From: a phage
Direction: 5' to 3' (one strand)
Length of the DNA: 44,786 nucleotides
Assembly: GCA_012646845.1 (NCBI GenBank)
Contig: GCA_012646845.1_4707.2
Made by a program: the position numbers and the translations under genes
The notes under the pieces: generated by a model
Told to the model about the DNA's origin: nothing
The model's database searches: none
Seen by the model: the letters and a program-made list of their open reading frames with translations, nothing else
Shown here: positions 4,703 through 40,751 of the stretch, piece by piece
Position numbering within the stretch: the first letter of the stretch is position 1
Layout: each line of letters starts with the position of its first letter

Positions 4703-5305
4703 TCACATGCTTTCTAGCATATTGACGATCATGGAACCCATACCGAAACTCGGTCTCTCGCCGATGTACTCAGCAAGCTGACGATGGACGTCTTTTGGAT
4801 TTCCTTCTTCACCATCGGCATCGATGTAAACCGAAAAAGAAACCGAATCGGAATCCACGCTGATAACCAGACGACGTTCATTGCGTTCCTTGAGTGTATC
4901 GACAATAGCTGCTTTCAGTACCGGGATCGCATTCATCGCGTGCAAGATATCTCCATCGGGTTTCGGTAGATCGATCTTTTCTTTCAGGTCGATATTGATG
5001 TTGGTTACAATTGGGTTGAGGTCGACCTTGACATAATCGTTAGGATACATGCGAATAATCGCACGATCAATATCTGAACCGTAAAAGTCAACACGTGGCT
5101 TTAACACCTCTTTGTTTGGATCCATGTTTTCATCCATCCCAGCCTGCAAGAAACGTTCTACGTTATCCAGTTCACGATAAACTGACGCTTCGATTTCTTT
5201 CAGATAGTTGGCTGCGGTTTCATGCTCTTTACGCAGCTCGTCTTTAAGGAGCTGTACGGTGGTTTCACTGGAACGAATGCTGTTCGCGAATTGGGTAATT
5301 GACAT
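4703..5305 (-). CDS. hypothetical protein (200 aa)
   Basis: Track ORF begins with TTG at 5335; internal ATG at 5305 preceded by TAAGGA RBS. Confidence 0.6.
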   Translation of the reverse strand: MSITQFANSIRSSETTVQLLKDELRKEHETAANYLKEIEASVYRELDNVERFLQAGMDENMDPNKEVLKPRVDFYGSDIDRAIIRMYPNDYVKVDLNPIVTNINIDLKEKIDLPKPDGDILHAMNAIPVLKAAIVDTLKERNERRLVISVDSDSVSFSVYIDADGEEGNPKDVHRQLAEYIGERPSFGMGSMIVNMLESM

Positions 5306-5402
5306 ATTGAATTCCTTAAATTCTCTTGAGTTCAATTAATGATGAAAAGCTGTAAAAAAGGTGGGGCGAACCCCACCAAAACGTCAGACACACGCAGGAA
5401 AA

Positions 5403-5828
5403 TTAATTCAGTGACGCATATAACGCATAACGACTGTAGATCTCAACCGCCGGTCCGTTATGGGTTAACAGACCATCCTGGTTGTAATACTGGAAAAATG
5501 AATAACGTTTGTCGAAGTGATAAACAAAAGCAATGTCTTTGCCGTCAAAACCTGTGATGCGTGGTCTGTTTTTATCTAGCAATGCTTTGACTTTTAACAG
5601 TGTTGCCGCACGTGCTTTAACGTTAGGGATCAAGCCATCGCAATCGATATAAACTGTGTAACCTGTTTCAGATGTTGCGACGGTCGTATTGCGATTGATG
5701 CGAAAGATTTTTGTTTTGTATGTATCATCTTCAAGAATTGGGTTTTGTTTTTCGTATTTTCGTTTACGCAGAAATTCTACAACGGTAATATAGTTAGCGG
5801 TGATATGTCCGGTTATAGCTTGTAACAT
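5403..5828 (-). CDS. hypothetical protein (141 aa)
   Basis: ORF track; preceded by conserved leader GGATGTCAAG-ATG. Confidence 0.65.
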   Translation of the reverse strand: MLQAITGHITANYITVVEFLRKRKYEKQNPILEDDTYKTKIFRINRNTTVATSETGYTVYIDCDGLIPNVKARAATLLKVKALLDKNRPRITGFDGKDIAFVYHFDKRYSFFQYYNQDGLLTHNGPAVEIYSRYALYASLN

Positions 5829-5940
5829 CTTGACATCCTTTTATATTGGATTGGTTGCAATTGTCTTAAATAGATGATAAGATATTTTGCTCTTATCACT
5901 AAGGTAATATAGCCGTGAAATAGACTGCGTTAACAAGAAA
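5829..5940 (-). promoter_or_regulatory. Conserved promoter/leader module, copy 1
   Basis: Minus strand reads TTTCACGGCTATATTACCTTAG - hairpin (TGATAAGA..TCTTATCA) - CAATCCAATATAAAAGGATGTCAAG-ATG; same architecture at 29786-29889. Confidence 0.45.
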
Positions 5941-20075: not shown

Positions 20076-20660
20076 TTACACAGCTGTAGGAAGTTCAGGC
20101 CAATCGATATTTGGTGCTGTTGATGTGTCAACGCGGTGCAGAGCCACCCGATACTTTTTCCATGCTGTCAGCATCGACACCTCTTCTTCCGTTGCGATCT
20201 CCAGATCCACAGCATCCTGAAGTGGCGCAATACGATCATTCGCTGCCTGCATCAGACTGTTTTTTGTTTCTTCCGCCTCCCGGACATGGGATTGTTTTTC
20301 CGCATCTGTATCTTTCACCCAGGTTGTTCCGTCCCACTTCTGAAACTCTCCTTCCGGGGATAACCAAGTAGTATTTTCTGGTAACGGACCGAGTTCAGAA
20401 ATAAATAACGCGTCGCCGGAAGCCACATCATAGACGGTTTTACCCCGATGGTCTTCAACAATATACCACGATTCATTTTCACTGTTAAAAACTGCCACAA
20501 AGTCAGCAGGAATTTCCGGTGGGGCGATATCTGTAGAATTAGCTGGTAGTCCCGTATGCGGTGGAATATATGCGTCGCCTTCACCAATAAACTCATTGGT
20601 TCCGGCCAGCAGATTATAAATTTTTATGGTTTGTGGTTCATCACTCATTCTGAATGCCAT
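20076..20660 (-). CDS. tail fibre assembly protein (chaperone)
   Basis: Start overlaps fibre stop (TAATG); sequence resembles Tfa/gpG-type chaperones; position immediately downstream of fibre gene. Confidence 0.8.
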
Positions 20661-29785: not shown

Positions 29786-29889
29786 CTTGACATCCTCTTA
29801 TATTGGATTGATTGCTAATAATTCAAGGTGAAGTCAATGACTCCATTGCTTCACCTAGGTAATATAGCCGTGAAAATTAATGCATTGAC
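29786..29889 (-). promoter_or_regulatory. Conserved promoter/leader module, copy 2
   Basis: Minus strand reads TTTTCACGGCTATATTACCTAG - hairpin (GGTGAAG..CTTCACC) - CAATCCAATATAAGAGGATGTCAAG-ATG. Confidence 0.45.
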
Positions 29890-33419: not shown

Positions 33420-33545
33420 TTATTCATTTTCAATAACTTTAAGATTCGGTGTGCCGAGCGTTTTCTTCACCAACGCCTCAGCAACGCGTTTCTCGATGAA
33501 ATCGGTCGAATTGCTTCCGTTAATAACCAGTGTTTTGATGCTCAT
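33420..33545 (-). CDS. small ORF (41 aa, below track cutoff)
   Basis: Hand-translated MSIKTLVINGSNSTDFIEKRVAEALVKKTLGTPNLKVIENE; GAAGGA RBS. Confidence 0.3.
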   Translation of the reverse strand: MSIKTLVINGSNSTDFIEKRVAEALVKKTLGTPNLKVIENE

Positions 33546-34048
33546 GCTAAAATTCCTTCATTACCTAACAGTCGATTACGATGACGTCGGTACATTTGAC
33601 AAAGTGTTGTGATTTGATAAAGTTTGTTGTAACGTACCTCGATACGTTTTTGCACCTCTTTCCACGGAAGTTTATCGTATTGCCGATAACGATGGATTTC
33701 ATTCAACATCCGAAGACGCGTAGGATCGGTATTCTTTATTGTTACGAGCTTCACGCGCTGGTATCCGCGCTGCAACCCCGATTCCGAATACGTAATACCG
33801 AACTCATCCTGAATGATAGTAATGATCTCCCGCCATCGGCGCTTCTCACCGTCACGTAAATGGACAACCCGTGATAAGATATCGTTCCGATTACGATGAC
33901 TCAGTTTAATGTTAAGCATTGATGCGATCGCGCTAATTGCTCTCTGACTCCGTCCTAACGCATCACCGATCTCTTTCGATGTCATGACGCCAGCGTTTCG
34001 GCGTATGAATGCGATTTCGGTTGTTGTGTATTCTTTACCTGCTGCCAT
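33542..34048 (-). CDS. HTH-repeat protein, array member F
   Basis: Repeats YTTTEIAFIRRNAGVMTSKEIGDALGRSQRAI and WREIITIIQDEFGITYSESGLQRGYQR. Confidence 0.7.
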   Translation of the reverse strand: MAAGKEYTTTEIAFIRRNAGVMTSKEIGDALGRSQRAISAIASMLNIKLSHRNRNDILSRVVHLRDGEKRRWREIITIIQDEFGITYSESGLQRGYQRVKLVTIKNTDPTRLRMLNEIHRYRQYDKLPWKEVQKRIEVRYNKLYQITTLCQMYRRHRNRLLGNEGILA

Positions 34049-34512
34049 TTTTTACCACGTGTGTTATAATAGTAACGTTGACAAAGATGTGTGTGATGGT
34101 ACTCCCGTTTGAACTCGACATTGATAATGCGAGCAACTTCTCTCCATCTGACCCCTTCATGTCGCAGTGCTGTGATACGGTCTGAAATTTTGCACCATTC
34201 ATCTGGGTCGTATCGTCGCAGTTTATGGCGTCGTATTACGGAGGCGACGCTCGCTTTCGATCGGCCAAGATGGTTTGACAGTTGTTTAACCGAGTATCTG
34301 TGGATATTATCGCGAATATAGGAAAGCTCGTTGTTCGTATATGCCTCATTGGTTCTCGGCGAAGGGAACAATACGTATAACTTATTCTTAATCGCGCTTT
34401 CTGTGCGTTGAAACACGGTAACCAGTTCACTAATCGATGGTCTAGGTATTTGATACGCGTAATTCTCGAGGCGTGAGAGTTCCTCATCTGTCCAGCGGCG
34501 GTATTTGCGCAT
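33982..34512 (-). CDS. HTH-repeat protein, array member E
   Basis: Start at ATG 34512 (AAGGAG RBS); WTDEELSRL..., SVKQLSNHLGRSKASV, WREVARIINVEF modules. Confidence 0.7.
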   Translation of the reverse strand: MRKYRRWTDEELSRLENYAYQIPRPSISELVTVFQRTESAIKNKLYVLFPSPRTNEAYTNNELSYIRDNIHRYSVKQLSNHLGRSKASVASVIRRHKLRRYDPDEWCKISDRITALRHEGVRWREVARIINVEFKREYHHTHLCQRYYYNTRGKKWQQVKNTQQPKSHSYAETLAS

Positions 34513-34987
34513 GGGCAACTCCTTTGTTTTTCGTGTAATAGCACCAACGTTGATACAACGCATGTTTATTCGTTGTAATCCCAAATTTAACAACAACGTC
34601 GTATGTGATAATATTCCAATTTTGGGTGACGTTAAGTCGTTCCGCGATAAACGCGATAATCGCTTCCCGTTCTTGCTTGGTTAACGCACGACGAATTCCA
34701 TTAAGCCGTATAAACTGACGAACCGAGTCATACGAACGGTTTAAATCATACGCAATCTCCCTCAGCGATTTTTGTTTGATTACGGACTTGATGTATGCAC
34801 GTTCTTCTTCCGTATACGGTCGATGCTTCTGGCGCTGACGTATTCCCAAACGCCCCAGACACGCGTCGATGCTGGCGTATGTTCGTCCTGTCCGTTGTGC
34901 GATTTCATCAATCGTCAGCGGCGTGTTCAAGTACATGTGTGTAACATCTTTTAACTCATCGTTACGCCACGGCCGAGGTCGTCCCAT
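34484..34987 (-). CDS. HTH-repeat protein, array member D
   Basis: WRNDELKDV...IDEIAQRTGRTYASI; SLREIAYDLNRSYDSV; WNIITYDVVVKFGIT. Confidence 0.7.
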   Translation of the reverse strand: MGRPRPWRNDELKDVTHMYLNTPLTIDEIAQRTGRTYASIDACLGRLGIRQRQKHRPYTEEERAYIKSVIKQKSLREIAYDLNRSYDSVRQFIRLNGIRRALTKQEREAIIAFIAERLNVTQNWNIITYDVVVKFGITTNKHALYQRWCYYTKNKGVAHAQIPPLDR

Positions 34988-35465
34988 CTTGTATCCCTCT
35001 TTTCTTTCTATGATGCCACCAACGCTGATAAACAGCTTGCTTCGTCCGTGTTATGCCAAAATGCGCATTAACCCGTTCAGCAATGTGGTACCAATCCTGC
35101 GTTTCTTCTAACAATGCATCAACGAAGGCTATGAAGATCTTAGTATCATCCTCGCTTAACCGCTTGAAACCATGGCGGTGTGCTATTGTTCGAATACTGT
35201 TTGGATCTCTGTTTAAATCGCGTGCGAGCTGTTTGTAACTTTTGTGCTTACAGTGTAGTCTGATATATTCCAACTCATCGACGCTGAAACGTTTATGTGG
35301 TTTACGACGTTCGACATTTAAGTATATCAACCTCGATTTAATTGCACCGTACGTTGTTTCCATGATTTCTGCGATTTCACGGATTTTTAATTTCGGATGG
35401 CGGTAGTACAATTCCAGCAGCTGTTCATCATCCTTACGATTCCATCGTCGTACTGGGGGTTTCAC
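34962..35465 (-). CDS. HTH-repeat protein, array member C (GTG start)
   Basis: WNRKDDEQLLELY...IREIAEIMETTYGAI; SYKQLARDLNRDPNSI; WYHIAERVNAHFGIT. Confidence 0.7.
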   Translation of the reverse strand: MKPPVRRWNRKDDEQLLELYYRHPKLKIREIAEIMETTYGAIKSRLIYLNVERRKPHKRFSVDELEYIRLHCKHKSYKQLARDLNRDPNSIRTIAHRHGFKRLSEDDTKIFIAFVDALLEETQDWYHIAERVNAHFGITRTKQAVYQRWWHHRKKRGIQDGTTSAVA

Positions 35466-35478
35466 AACTCGATTTCTC

Positions 35479-35946
35479 CTATTCTACGCGTTTTAATGCT
35501 TGAGTGTAGTAGAGGGTATGAACACCACTTAATGTGTAATGGGTGTTAAATTCGTTATTGATGATATTCTGTATTCTCTCCCAGGTTTTCTTCTCTTTTC
35601 TAAGAGTATGTATTCGGTGATAAATCATCTCTCGACGTTGCGCTTTGCACGCGATAATACCGTAGCGGTAGCAGAGTTTAGCGATCGCGTCCACGCTACG
35701 ATTGAACATTACCGCGGCTTCTTTCACGCTGTGCGTCTTGAGATAATCGGCTAACATCACGCGTTCTTCGAAACAACAATAGCGGTGACGCGACGTGAGT
35801 TTCCAGCGCTTGCGATTACGGTTAATTCGACCTTGAACCGAACCTTCCGTTCGGCCAAGTCGTACCGCAATCTCTTGCATCGGGATACCGTTGCGATAGA
35901 GGGTAATCAACATCGCATCTTCTTCGGGTGTCCAGTCTTTGACCAT
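35479..35946 (-). CDS. HTH-repeat protein, array member B
   Basis: WTPEEDAMLITLYRNGIPMQEIAVRLGRTEGSV (Myb/SANT-like pattern); SVKEAAVMFNRSVDAI; WERIQNIINNEF. Confidence 0.7.
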   Translation of the reverse strand: MVKDWTPEEDAMLITLYRNGIPMQEIAVRLGRTEGSVQGRINRNRKRWKLTSRHRYCCFEERVMLADYLKTHSVKEAAVMFNRSVDAIAKLCYRYGIIACKAQRREMIYHRIHTLRKEKKTWERIQNIINNEFNTHYTLSGVHTLYYTQALKRVE

Positions 35947-35958
35947 AGTACCACCCCA

Positions 35959-36271
35959 TCAACGTCTTACTTTAAGCGGTATCTTGTTTCGGAAACAATA
36001 ACACCGGATGGCGTGTACGCTACGATTCATTATTTCAGCAATTTCTTTTAGGGTATGTTTCTTTGCAAGCATAGCAATCCTAACCCTTTCTTCTGGTGTG
36101 TAAACTCCCCCACGAGGAGGTAGGTCACCTCGTCGTTTCCTCAACTTGAGGTAACGCGCGCGAATAGAACACGGCGTCCGATCCATACAACGCGCTATTT
36201 CTTTATAGCTCGCTTTTGGTGATGTGCTAAGAATAAGCAGCAGCGCTTCATCCTCTTTATCCGTCCAACGT

Positions 36272-36279
<8 letters not shown>
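35959..36279 (-). CDS. HTH-repeat protein, array member A (two modules)
   Basis: WTDKEDEALLLIL...SYKEIARCMDRTPCSI; TLKEIAEIMNRSVHAI. Confidence 0.7.
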
Positions 36280-39334
<3,055 letters not shown>

Positions 39335-40074: not shown

Positions 40075-40345
40075 TTACACCTGGCGGTACCACGATACCG
40101 GTACGAATCACAGCAGCAACTTCCTGCATGCCTTTACCCTTCAACGCATAGGTTTCATGTACCACATTACGTCGAGTCGTTAATCCAACAAATTTACATA
40201 CAACCATGTTGTTTTCTGAAAGATAAGCGGTGTCGAGTTCACCATGCAACAATTCTTTCTCTTTGGTGTCAATACCCAATAACGCAATTTGATAAGCCGA
40301 AAGTTTCCAATAACGCATGTTATCACCCAAACTGTTAAGAAGCAT
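40025..40345 (-). CDS. hypothetical protein (start uncertain)
   Basis: ORF track; overlaps neighbours at both ends. Confidence 0.45.
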   Translation of the reverse strand: MLLNSLGDNMRYWKLSAYQIALLGIDTKEKELLHGELDTAYLSENNMVVCKFVGLTTRRNVVHETYALKGKGMQEVAAVIRTGIVVPPGVSDNLDEVLHGTRKATR

Positions 40346-40751
40346 CCTGTTTAATGTCGATGAGTATTTCCGTTCGAACCGGATTGGTCAGTACGGCCCG
40401 CATGCGTTCAAGCATCATTGGGTTATCCGTAACCACCACATCGGCGTAACACAACGGATGACTTTCGAACGCTTCCGTGTCGCTTACTAACAGGACACCC
40501 ATCACATTTACGTATTGCGGTATGCGGCCACGAATGCGTTGCCACATGTCTTGAGTAAGGTCCTCGCTTTCTAATGCAACCACGACAACGGGACTGATAT
40601 TTACCGGGAAACGCGGATGCACTGTGCGGCGAAACGTTATCCAGCTTTCGATGTGGGATAATGCGAGTTCGAGAGAACAGCATTTTGGAGAAATCTGTAT
40701 GTTTATTTGTTGAATCAATGAAAGGGGGTTTTGTACAGTCTCTTCAGCCAT
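40335..40751 (-). CDS. hypothetical protein (138 aa)
   Basis: ORF track. Confidence 0.6.
   Translation of the reverse strand: MAEETVQNPLSLIQQINIQISPKCCSLELALSHIESWITFRRTVHPRFPVNISPVVVVALESEDLTQDMWQRIRGRIPQYVNVMGVLLVSDTEAFESHPLCYADVVVTDNPMMLERMRAVLTNPVRTEILIDIKQDAS

Follow-up and report, generated by a model that had tools for sequence, protein, structure and literature searches.

The 44,786-nucleotide (nt) stretch of phage DNA analysed here in its whole length (contig GCA_012646845.1_4707.2), hereafter called the window, has 93 % nucleotide identity with Escherichia phage vB_EcoM_Goslar, a nucleus-forming jumbo phage of 237 kb which serves as the E. coli model for chimalliviruses. Between positions 33542 and 36279 its minus strand carries an array of six paralogous genes, here called P1 to P6 in coding order, the products of which are built from two or three tandem helix-turn-helix (HTH) modules. 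Profile comparisons show that the first two module types form a pair (A-B) homologous to the D5 protein of phage T5, and in related genomes P1-P5 are a gene-by-gene mosaic of deeply diverged alleles. With a probability of roughly 0.55, the proteins would be multi-HTH binders of double-stranded DNA (dsDNA) which act on the phage's own DNA, regulating its transcription programme and/or its replication.

The six co-directional genes, coding for 106-176 amino acids (aa), were found exactly at the coordinates assigned to them when the letters were first interpreted without database searches (the sequence-only reading). P1 (35959-36279, on the minus strand as are all six; 106 aa) contains modules A-B. 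P2 (35479-35946; 155 aa), P3 (34962-35465; 167 aa, GTG start), P4 (34484-34987; 167 aa) and P5 (33982-34512; 176 aa counted from the ATG at 34512, the mechanical open reading frame (ORF) extending back to a TTG at 34596) contain modules A-B-C, and P6 (33542-34048; 168 aa) contains modules B-C-C'. They are one-to-one counterparts of Goslar gp119 (P1), gp118 (P2), gp117 (P3), gp116 (P4), gp115 (P5) and gp114 (P6), which are annotated as 'hypothetical' (gp114-gp118) or as a 'SANT/Myb domain-containing protein' (gp119). Short gaps separate P1 from P2 (12 nt) and P2 from P3 (13 nt), and the remaining neighbours overlap by 26 nt (P3/P4), 29 nt (P4/P5) and 67 nt (P5/P6). All six proteins are very basic, with isoelectric points of 9.9-10.5, and share 22-40 % pairwise identity. 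A hidden Markov model (HMM) of the family picked exactly P1-P6 and, among ORFs of 70 aa or more across the window, nothing else. The ratio of non-synonymous to synonymous change (dN/dS) against the Goslar counterparts was 0.03-0.21 (P2 0.08, P3 0.03, P5 0.14), with values of 0.10 for the DNA ligase and 0.13 for the methyltransferase in the neighbourhood; P1-P6 are thus real genes under purifying selection. A single long gene broken by frameshifts was ruled out, since each ORF has its own start, since a Shine-Dalgarno-like purine run lies ahead of most of these starts and since genes have been lost independently in relatives.

The modular pattern proposed from the sequence was borne out by multiple alignment, which placed module 1, or A (W-x-x-E/D-E ... 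EIA ... RT ... I), in P1-P5 and not in P6, module 2, or B, in all six proteins, and module 3, or C (W..I...F...Y..L.QR), in P2-P6, with two copies in P6 and none in P1, giving 17 three-helix modules in all. The description as paralogous proteins of tandem HTH modules holds, the modules being about 45-55 aa long; as 'triple HTH' proteins, however, only five of the six qualify, P1 having two modules here and three in relatives. The AlphaFold2 model of P4 (predicted local distance difference test score, pLDDT, 83.7; predicted template modelling score, pTM, 0.51) has nine helices grouped 3+3+3, at residues 9-21/26-33/37-47, 60-69/75-82/86-96 and 104-118/124-135/141-155. The model thus predicts a three-helix HTH for module A (aa 9-47; window 34847-34963, minus strand), another for module B (aa 60-96; 34700-34810, minus strand) after the basic linker RLGIRQRQKHRP, and a family-specific three-helix module C (aa 104-155; 34523-34678, minus strand). 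The P6 model (pLDDT 78.8, pTM 0.44) likewise has nine helices in three bundles, and low pTM values such as these are expected where separate domains are flexibly joined. The A-B linkers are mostly short and basic; the linkers include KLRKRRGDLPPRGG, NRNRKRWKLTSRHR, LNVERRKPHKR and LGIRQRQKHRP. The modules are predicted to be three-helix bundles in which helices 2 and 3 make up the HTH, as in Myb/SANT domains.

Not all of the modules are demonstrably related to each other. Profile-profile comparison with hhalign aligned A with B (97 %, E 6e-11) and C with C' (95 %, E 2e-8), so that homology of the repeats holds within these pairs, whereas A or B against C was not significant (E 0.002-0.003, probability 9-13 %) and the presumed homology of module 3 to modules 1 and 2 could not be upheld by sequence. 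Module C is accordingly, by its modelled structure, a three-helix HTH, yet it belongs to a sequence family separate from A/B. A helix-level comparison of the paralogs showed the third helices to be among the parts with the lowest conservation (18-25 % identity, helix 2 having 30-36 %). In orthologous alleles the third helices are preserved no worse than the remainder (50-60 % identity), and the idea that the recognition helices are the most variable part between alleles was thereby rejected. Beside the anatomy of P6, it was observed that its ortholog gp114 (L001, the Goslar locus, 4981-5487) is annotated as a protein of 147 aa from an internal methionine, and that a 168-aa form begins 21 codons upstream. 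These codons contain helix 1 of module B (EYTTTEIAFIRRNAG) and the stretch is kept in all relatives, for which reason the longer start is probably correct and the annotated one 21 codons too short.

All six proteins matched the same one of the 38,880 PHROG families, phrog_323 ('transcriptional regulator, D5-like'), with E values of 2.2e-19 (P1), 1.6e-17 (P2), 1.3e-14 (P3), 2.5e-14 (P4), 6.3e-17 (P5) and 2.8e-10 (P6). With the family HMM, the module comparisons and the purifying selection, this puts the modular pattern well outside what chance would produce. Among the Pfam models, P1 passed two for Myb domains with its module A, Myb_DNA-binding with 35.3 bits (cut-off 24.4) and another with 35.2 bits (cut-off 22.9), and was above the cut-off for HTH_23 (29.3 bits), and residues 104-151 of P3, its module C, passed Myb_DNA-bind_6 with 25.3 bits (cut-off 22.9). 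With the Myb models PF00249 and PF13921, P2 remained under the cut-off and P4-P6 gave no match, P3 being the only protein with a module C that is Myb-like by Pfam. Sigma70_r4_2 (cut-off 25.7) was passed by P2 (35.9 bits) and P3 (27.8 bits), and the NCBIfam sigma models reached 16-22 bits against cut-offs of 43-323. The Pfam GcrA family (PF07750) was matched by P2 only, with 15.1 bits against a cut-off of 26.9, at profile positions 2-42 of 155. The label 'Myb/SANT- or GcrA-like' is therefore a fair name for the module, P1 and module C of P3 passing Pfam Myb models, but the proteins do not belong to the GcrA family, the sigma-interacting domain of which they lack. A and B both represent a widespread module (W-T-x-E-E ... 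E-I-A ... G-R-S/T) that folds like Myb repeats and the DNA-binding domain of GcrA.

Searches by structure led to the same type of protein. The top Foldseek matches were Cbp2 (2lvs), followed by the bipartite domain of Tc3 transposase, Reb1, CENP-B and Pax6, all of which are tandem-HTH DNA binders. In a sequence-profile search of the PDB, 2lvs (E 4e-8) was the first natural protein, just below a 'CAP REPEAT' chain, and Myb R2R3 was matched with E 3e-4. Structural neighbours in BFVD included the Goslar paralogs, a D5 protein of a Vibrio phage and numerous small phage proteins that are uncharacterised.

D5 of T5 (T5.118, 255 aa) itself belongs to phrog_323 (E 1.2e-71) and has about four modules of the A/B type. 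When the array HMM was run on 35 kb of T5 (ORFs of at least 60 aa), D5 was the sole match (E 1e-10), and hhalign placed modules A-B of the array alignment onto D5 residues 135-236 in a comparison with 25 D5 proteins (94.5 %, E 7.4e-8, 94 columns). The gene context is also similar: the T5 order is ligA, ligB, D5 and D6 helicase, with the NAD-ligase genes directly before D5, and the array too lies downstream of a NAD-dependent DNA ligase, directly after it in L002, L003, L005, L007 and L011 and with one ORF similar to Goslar gp120 in between in the window. According to the T5 record, D5 binds DNA, is needed both for DNA replication and for late transcription, and is involved in shut-off. The differences are considerable. 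D5 is one protein of 255 aa (240-257 aa in its homologs) and lacks module C, the module-C HMM having found no match in it, whereas the array consists of six separate genes for 106-176 aa, each with at most two A/B modules, joined by module C in most. The identity is only about 21 %, the phrog_323 matches of P1-P6 span only profile positions of about 92-286 of 319, and D5 is a single-copy gene of T5-like genomes of about 110 kb, whereas the array varies and occurs only in Goslar-like jumbo phages. On these comparisons the relationship is one of the A-B module pair, and P1-P6 are not orthologs of D5. The earlier statement that no characterised phage system with this layout could be recognised was, because of this homology, too strong; the profile searches did turn up a characterised relative.

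Other known systems share the design to a lesser extent. GcrA of Caulobacter (PDB 5yiu), a sigma-70 cofactor at methylated promoters (PMC4647560, PMC5887438), resembles the array proteins in its N-terminal DNA-binding fold, in the W-T-x-E-E start of the module and through the weak match of P2, but has one DNA-binding domain and a C-terminal sigma-70-interacting domain that is absent from P1-P6. Cbp1, with three HTH units, and Cbp2, with two, are built in the same way, with two or three imperfect HTH repeats that basic linkers join over some 100-150 aa, and the tethered units of Cbp2 sit in adjacent segments of the major groove (PMC3597662). They are, however, archaeal proteins that target CRISPR repeats, and the NCBIfam model HTH_Cbp1 (NF040595) gave, across all three modules, only 23.7 bits for P3 and 24.0 bits for P4 against a cut-off of 140; the likeness is one of design and no evidence of shared function. 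Tandem three-helix modules with helix 3 expected in the major groove are further found in Myb R2R3, Tc3 transposase, the Pax paired domain, Reb1 and CENP-B. Of the three signature tryptophans of Myb only the first is kept in module A, module B having Y/F and the later positions I, A or L, and the resemblance to these eukaryotic domains is one of fold and design in a different lineage. Sigma-70 factors have the region 4 HTH that P2 and P3 match, but their region 2, which serves core binding and -10 recognition, is absent; neither region 2 nor region 3 was matched by any of P1-P6 at E<=1 in Pfam. The RsfA-like Myb-type factors of Bacillus phage G likewise represent multiple Myb-type HTH paralogs within a single jumbo phage, although from a different phage group and HTH family, and the number of transcription factors per jumbo phage has a median of 2 and a range of 1-15 (PMC7824862). 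The same paper already describes, in general terms, expansions of HTH regulators in jumbo phages, which qualifies the view of six diversified paralogs as unusual for a phage.

The A/B module is common, whereas the array is not. An exhaustive profile search of 1.84 billion cluster representatives gave 24,577 proteins at E<=1e-3, of which 404 reached E<=1e-30. The top matches were proteins of 300-900 aa with 4-10 A-B stretches, among them a helicase with nine repeats (P0031) and proteins made of repeats only (P0035, with six, and P0048). These long poly-HTH proteins, known from metagenomes and genomes, have the same module, but fused in one chain and often in near-identical repeats; in the array the modules are spread over six genes, are old (as the paralog identities given above indicate) and are joined with module C. 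As the best matched stretch nearly always ended near profile position 100, module C occurs essentially in the Goslar-like family alone. The family in this narrow sense comprised 30 clusters, nearly all on contigs of about 240 kb, with only four clusters for P6. A tblastn search of 50,697 phage records with P4 matched Goslar only, and the same search with a generic four-module relative matched only gp44 of Listeria phage B025 ('D5-like') and Acidovorax phage AP1. A scan of viral contigs with P6 as query found two Goslar-type genomes only. The array is a lineage-specific expansion. The closest copy of P4 in the databases (P0002), which differs only by a deletion of 3 aa, is recorded as a hypothetical protein of Escherichia coli on a 199-kb contig, from which it follows that Goslar-like phage genomes are present inside bacterial assemblies.

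The search for the array in related genomes that had been proposed earlier was successful: it was found at the same place, with content that differs between loci, in seven related loci, among them those of Goslar (L001), L002, L003, L004, L005, L007 and L011. Six members, including a P1 with two modules, are present in the window, in Goslar and in L007, and six members with a three-module P1 (152 aa) in L011. Five are present in L003, which lacks P2, in L002, which lacks P2 and has a truncated P4, and in L004, which lacks P1, so that the copy number among Goslar-like genomes is 5-6; the gene order is kept in all relatives. Three-module orthologs of P1 (152-156 aa) occur in L002, L003, L005 and L011, and by comparison with them the 106-aa P1 has evidently lost module C.

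Proteins flanking the array are mostly 85-97 % identical to those of the window, whereas P1-P5 range overall from 37 to 92 % across the relatives, the P1 of Goslar being 92 % identical. Against L002-L005 the identities were 55-57 % for P1, 70-72 % for P2, 48-52 % for P3, 37-40 % for P4, 46-47 % for P5 and 88-94 % for P6. P4 is the most divergent ortholog set, with 37 % to L003/L004, and P6, 88-95 % identical across the relatives, stands apart as conserved and marks the 3' limit of the variable cassette. In blastn comparisons with L002/L003 the similarity breaks off where the ligase ends (window position 36994) and returns where P6 starts (34032); across the P1-P5 block no nucleotide similarity was detectable in genomes whose flanks match at 90-95 %. 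The proportion of synonymous differences (pS) was 0.70-0.81 in P1-P5 and 0.22 in the ligase of the same genome pair. This saturation means that the alleles are old and were brought together by recombination rather than in a recent burst of positive selection, and rapid positive selection was rejected as the main cause of the P1-P5 divergence for this reason. Within an allele class (L003 versus L004) selection was purifying (dN/dS 0.10-0.14). L011 mixes the classes gene by gene (P1 56 %, P2 92 %, P3 75 %, P4 69 %, P5 89 %). Such a hypervariable mosaic, which the sequence-only reading could not have revealed, is the trait that most sets the array apart. No meaningful DNA repeats were found within the array, and the duplications are thus old as well. 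Single genes in the flanks are also mosaic (a 199-aa ORF with 60 % identity and a 103-aa ORF with 68-69 %), which shows that mosaicism as such is normal for Goslar-like phages, the array being the largest such block here.

The array sits within a long block of co-directional minus-strand genes. Its conserved 5' flank is the NAD-dependent DNA ligase (36978-39053, minus strand), which is 85-97 % identical at the aa level in every related locus. Lying between ligase and P1, the gp120-like ORF (36272 to 36988-37018, minus strand; 235-248 aa) is not a member of the family and had no Pfam match; it is a presence/absence polymorphism, found in the window, Goslar and L004 and absent from L002, L003, L005, L007 and L011. 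On the other side of the array, a 41-aa ORF at 33420-33545 (minus strand) consists of the first nine codons of gp113 fused to the last 32 or so of gp112, showing that the window has lost about 840 bp with the GNAT acetyltransferase gp113 and most of gp112; both genes are kept in Goslar, L002-L004, L007 and L011. At window 40318-40352, L002, L003, L005 and L011 differ in carrying a Dam-like, D12-class DNA methyltransferase (275 aa) and a 97-aa ORF where the window has a 106-aa ORF. Among the loci compared, the D12 methyltransferase, which is split in L005, occurs only in genomes with the three-module P1 allele. With the GcrA-like fold of the modules in view, this co-occurrence is suggestive, but the sample is small and the two loci lie only 3.5 kb from each other.

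Regulatory signals were sought in the window. Scans of the array for sigma-70 promoters and terminators gave results at the level of shuffled sequence. The early-promoter motif of PhiKZ-like phages has been given as TATATTAC for phiKZ and as TTTRARR.BTATATTACDWHDGTG for 201phi2-1 (PMC7058600, Table 2). Two exact copies of TTTCACGGCTATATTACCTnnGTG, at 5897-5920 and 29852-29875 (both on the minus strand), fit this consensus, and each is followed after about 40-45 nt by a conserved block, GCAAyCAATCCAATATAArAGGATGTCAAGATG, with the ribosome-binding site and the start codon of the downstream gene. No motif of this early type was found in the 8.5 kb upstream of the array, which argues weakly against an early role in host takeover, and the takeover function suggested in the sequence-only reading remained without support. 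Elsewhere in the window, a full-length match to Rfam RF02111 'IS009' (20119-20317, minus strand; 173.8 bits, E 1.5e-41) lies wholly within a tail-fibre assembly gene (ORF 20076-20660; Pfam Caudo_TAP, E 7e-43) and most likely owes its score to conservation of the coding sequence, not to an RNA gene. Two pairs of direct repeats over adjacent minus-strand ORFs, 18006-18136/18763-18893 (131 nt, 85 %) and 2938-3066/3369-3497 (129 nt, 71 %), suggest two further small tandem gene duplications.

As regulators of phage DNA, the array proteins would act through two or three independently folded three-helix HTH modules on short, mostly basic linkers, each HTH sitting in a neighbouring stretch of the major groove and held there by the linkers, as in Cbp1/Cbp2, Myb R2R3, Tc3 and Pax. 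The differing recognition helices of the six paralogs would give them different site preferences, for which the helix-level comparison above offers modest support. The target would most likely, by analogy with T5 D5, be the phage's own DNA, and the effect a regulation of the transcription programme and/or of replication. The missing early motif points to a probable middle class, expressed together with the adjacent replication genes.

Several points weigh against this interpretation. No candidate binding site emerged from the promoter and terminator scans, from the search for repeats in the array or from a repeat search across the whole window. Modules of the Myb/SANT type may also bind proteins instead of DNA, the helix-level conservation signal is weak, and the temporal class was deduced solely from the absence of a motif. 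The similarity to D5, a protein whose mechanism is poorly defined, is limited to the A-B pair, with different lengths and module numbers. In two other chimalliviruses, Serratia phage Moabite and Ralstonia phage RSL2, the ligase neighbourhood contained no family member, which places the array outside the conserved chimallivirus programme. Core regulators are usually conserved, whereas P1-P5 are hypervariable, with P1 or P2 missing in some relatives, which suggests dispensability or a role in conflict.

An architectural function, in which the proteins would form a kind of chromatin in the phage nucleus, coating or compacting the DNA cooperatively and with low specificity in place of the excluded host nucleoid proteins, is unlikely but has several points in its favour. 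The proteins are very basic, flexible and bead-like with multiple HTH units, and the relatives with 4-10 near-identical module pairs per chain suggest binding along DNA. The older literature reportedly describes T5 D5 as abundant and as binding dsDNA cooperatively. Among solved architectures Cbp1 comes closest, and together with Cren7 it forms structures resembling chromatin on CRISPR arrays (PMC10883916); a review of nucleus-forming phages from 2025 names neither a DNA-organising protein nor a gene-specific regulator inside the chimallivirus nucleus. Six diverged paralogs with different recognition helices would, however, be unneeded for non-specific coating. The literature search found no mention of Goslar gp114-gp118, which are unnamed also in the Goslar virion structure paper, where the single 'gp119' is that of PhiKZ; nor did a search for a genome-wide fitness screen of Goslar turn one up.

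It is somewhat less probable still that the diversity is maintained by conflict or compatibility, through sensing by host immunity, discrimination between co-infecting related phages or binding of host DNA or RNA polymerase during takeover, in an arms race. The loss of nucleotide similarity across P1-P5 between otherwise well-matched flanks, the saturated synonymous sites, the shuffled alleles of L011 and the variable copy number would all fit such a history, as would D5, described as an HTH DNA binder which sets off a type IX retron and is by itself mildly toxic (10.64898/2026.07.11.737809, 2026 preprint). Selection is nevertheless purifying both against Goslar (0.03-0.21) and within an allele class (0.10-0.14), the 199-aa and 103-aa flank ORFs are mosaic too, and the early-promoter motif expected for takeover genes is missing upstream. 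PADLOC returned only three marginal matches, all to P5, and no anti-defence signature was seen.

A speculative and rather improbable reading would make P1-P5 interchangeable specificity factors for DNA transactions in the phage nucleus, perhaps as promoter-selectivity or DNA-methylation-reading cofactors of the phage RNA polymerase in the manner of GcrA, with the diverged alleles, swapped gene by gene, defining compatibility groups among co-infecting phages of the Goslar type; a methyl-reading role would fit the co-occurrence of the three-module P1 allele with the D12 methyltransferase. Least probable is a descent from the DNA-binding domains of homing endonucleases, as decaying remnants or as domesticated binders at endonuclease target sites: P3 and P4 do match the N-terminal 100 or so residues, a tandem HTH targeting domain, of phage HNH-endonuclease families (phrog_1891, E 1.9e-8, the value for P3; phrog_8446, 2.1e-7, the value for P4; phrog_7545, 4.5e-6; profile positions 7-104), endonucleases carrying such domains at their N-termini (those of BcepSauron and ME3) are among the BFVD neighbours, and the mosaic distribution is like that of mobile genes, but none of P1-P6 has an HNH domain, a nuclease Pfam family or a nuclease remnant, the matches stopping before the nuclease part, all six genes are intact, under purifying selection and in the same order in all relatives, module C was not found in the endonuclease families, and the matches to phrog_323 are stronger by many orders of magnitude.

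Phage DNA-binding proteins of the D5 type are already known, and the array is an expansion of these rather than a new system. What is new here is that D5/GcrA/Myb-type tandem-HTH proteins have been expanded to six genes, with an extra family-specific module and an unusual allelic diversity. If P1-P6 are ordinary accessory regulators, the value of the finding would lie mainly in the annotation of gp114-gp118, which are at present 'hypothetical'. The array provides six tractable candidate DNA-binding proteins with a domain map, linked to the long-known yet poorly understood D5 of T5, and, through its alternative alleles and its 5- and 6-gene versions in otherwise near-identical genomes, a natural experiment.

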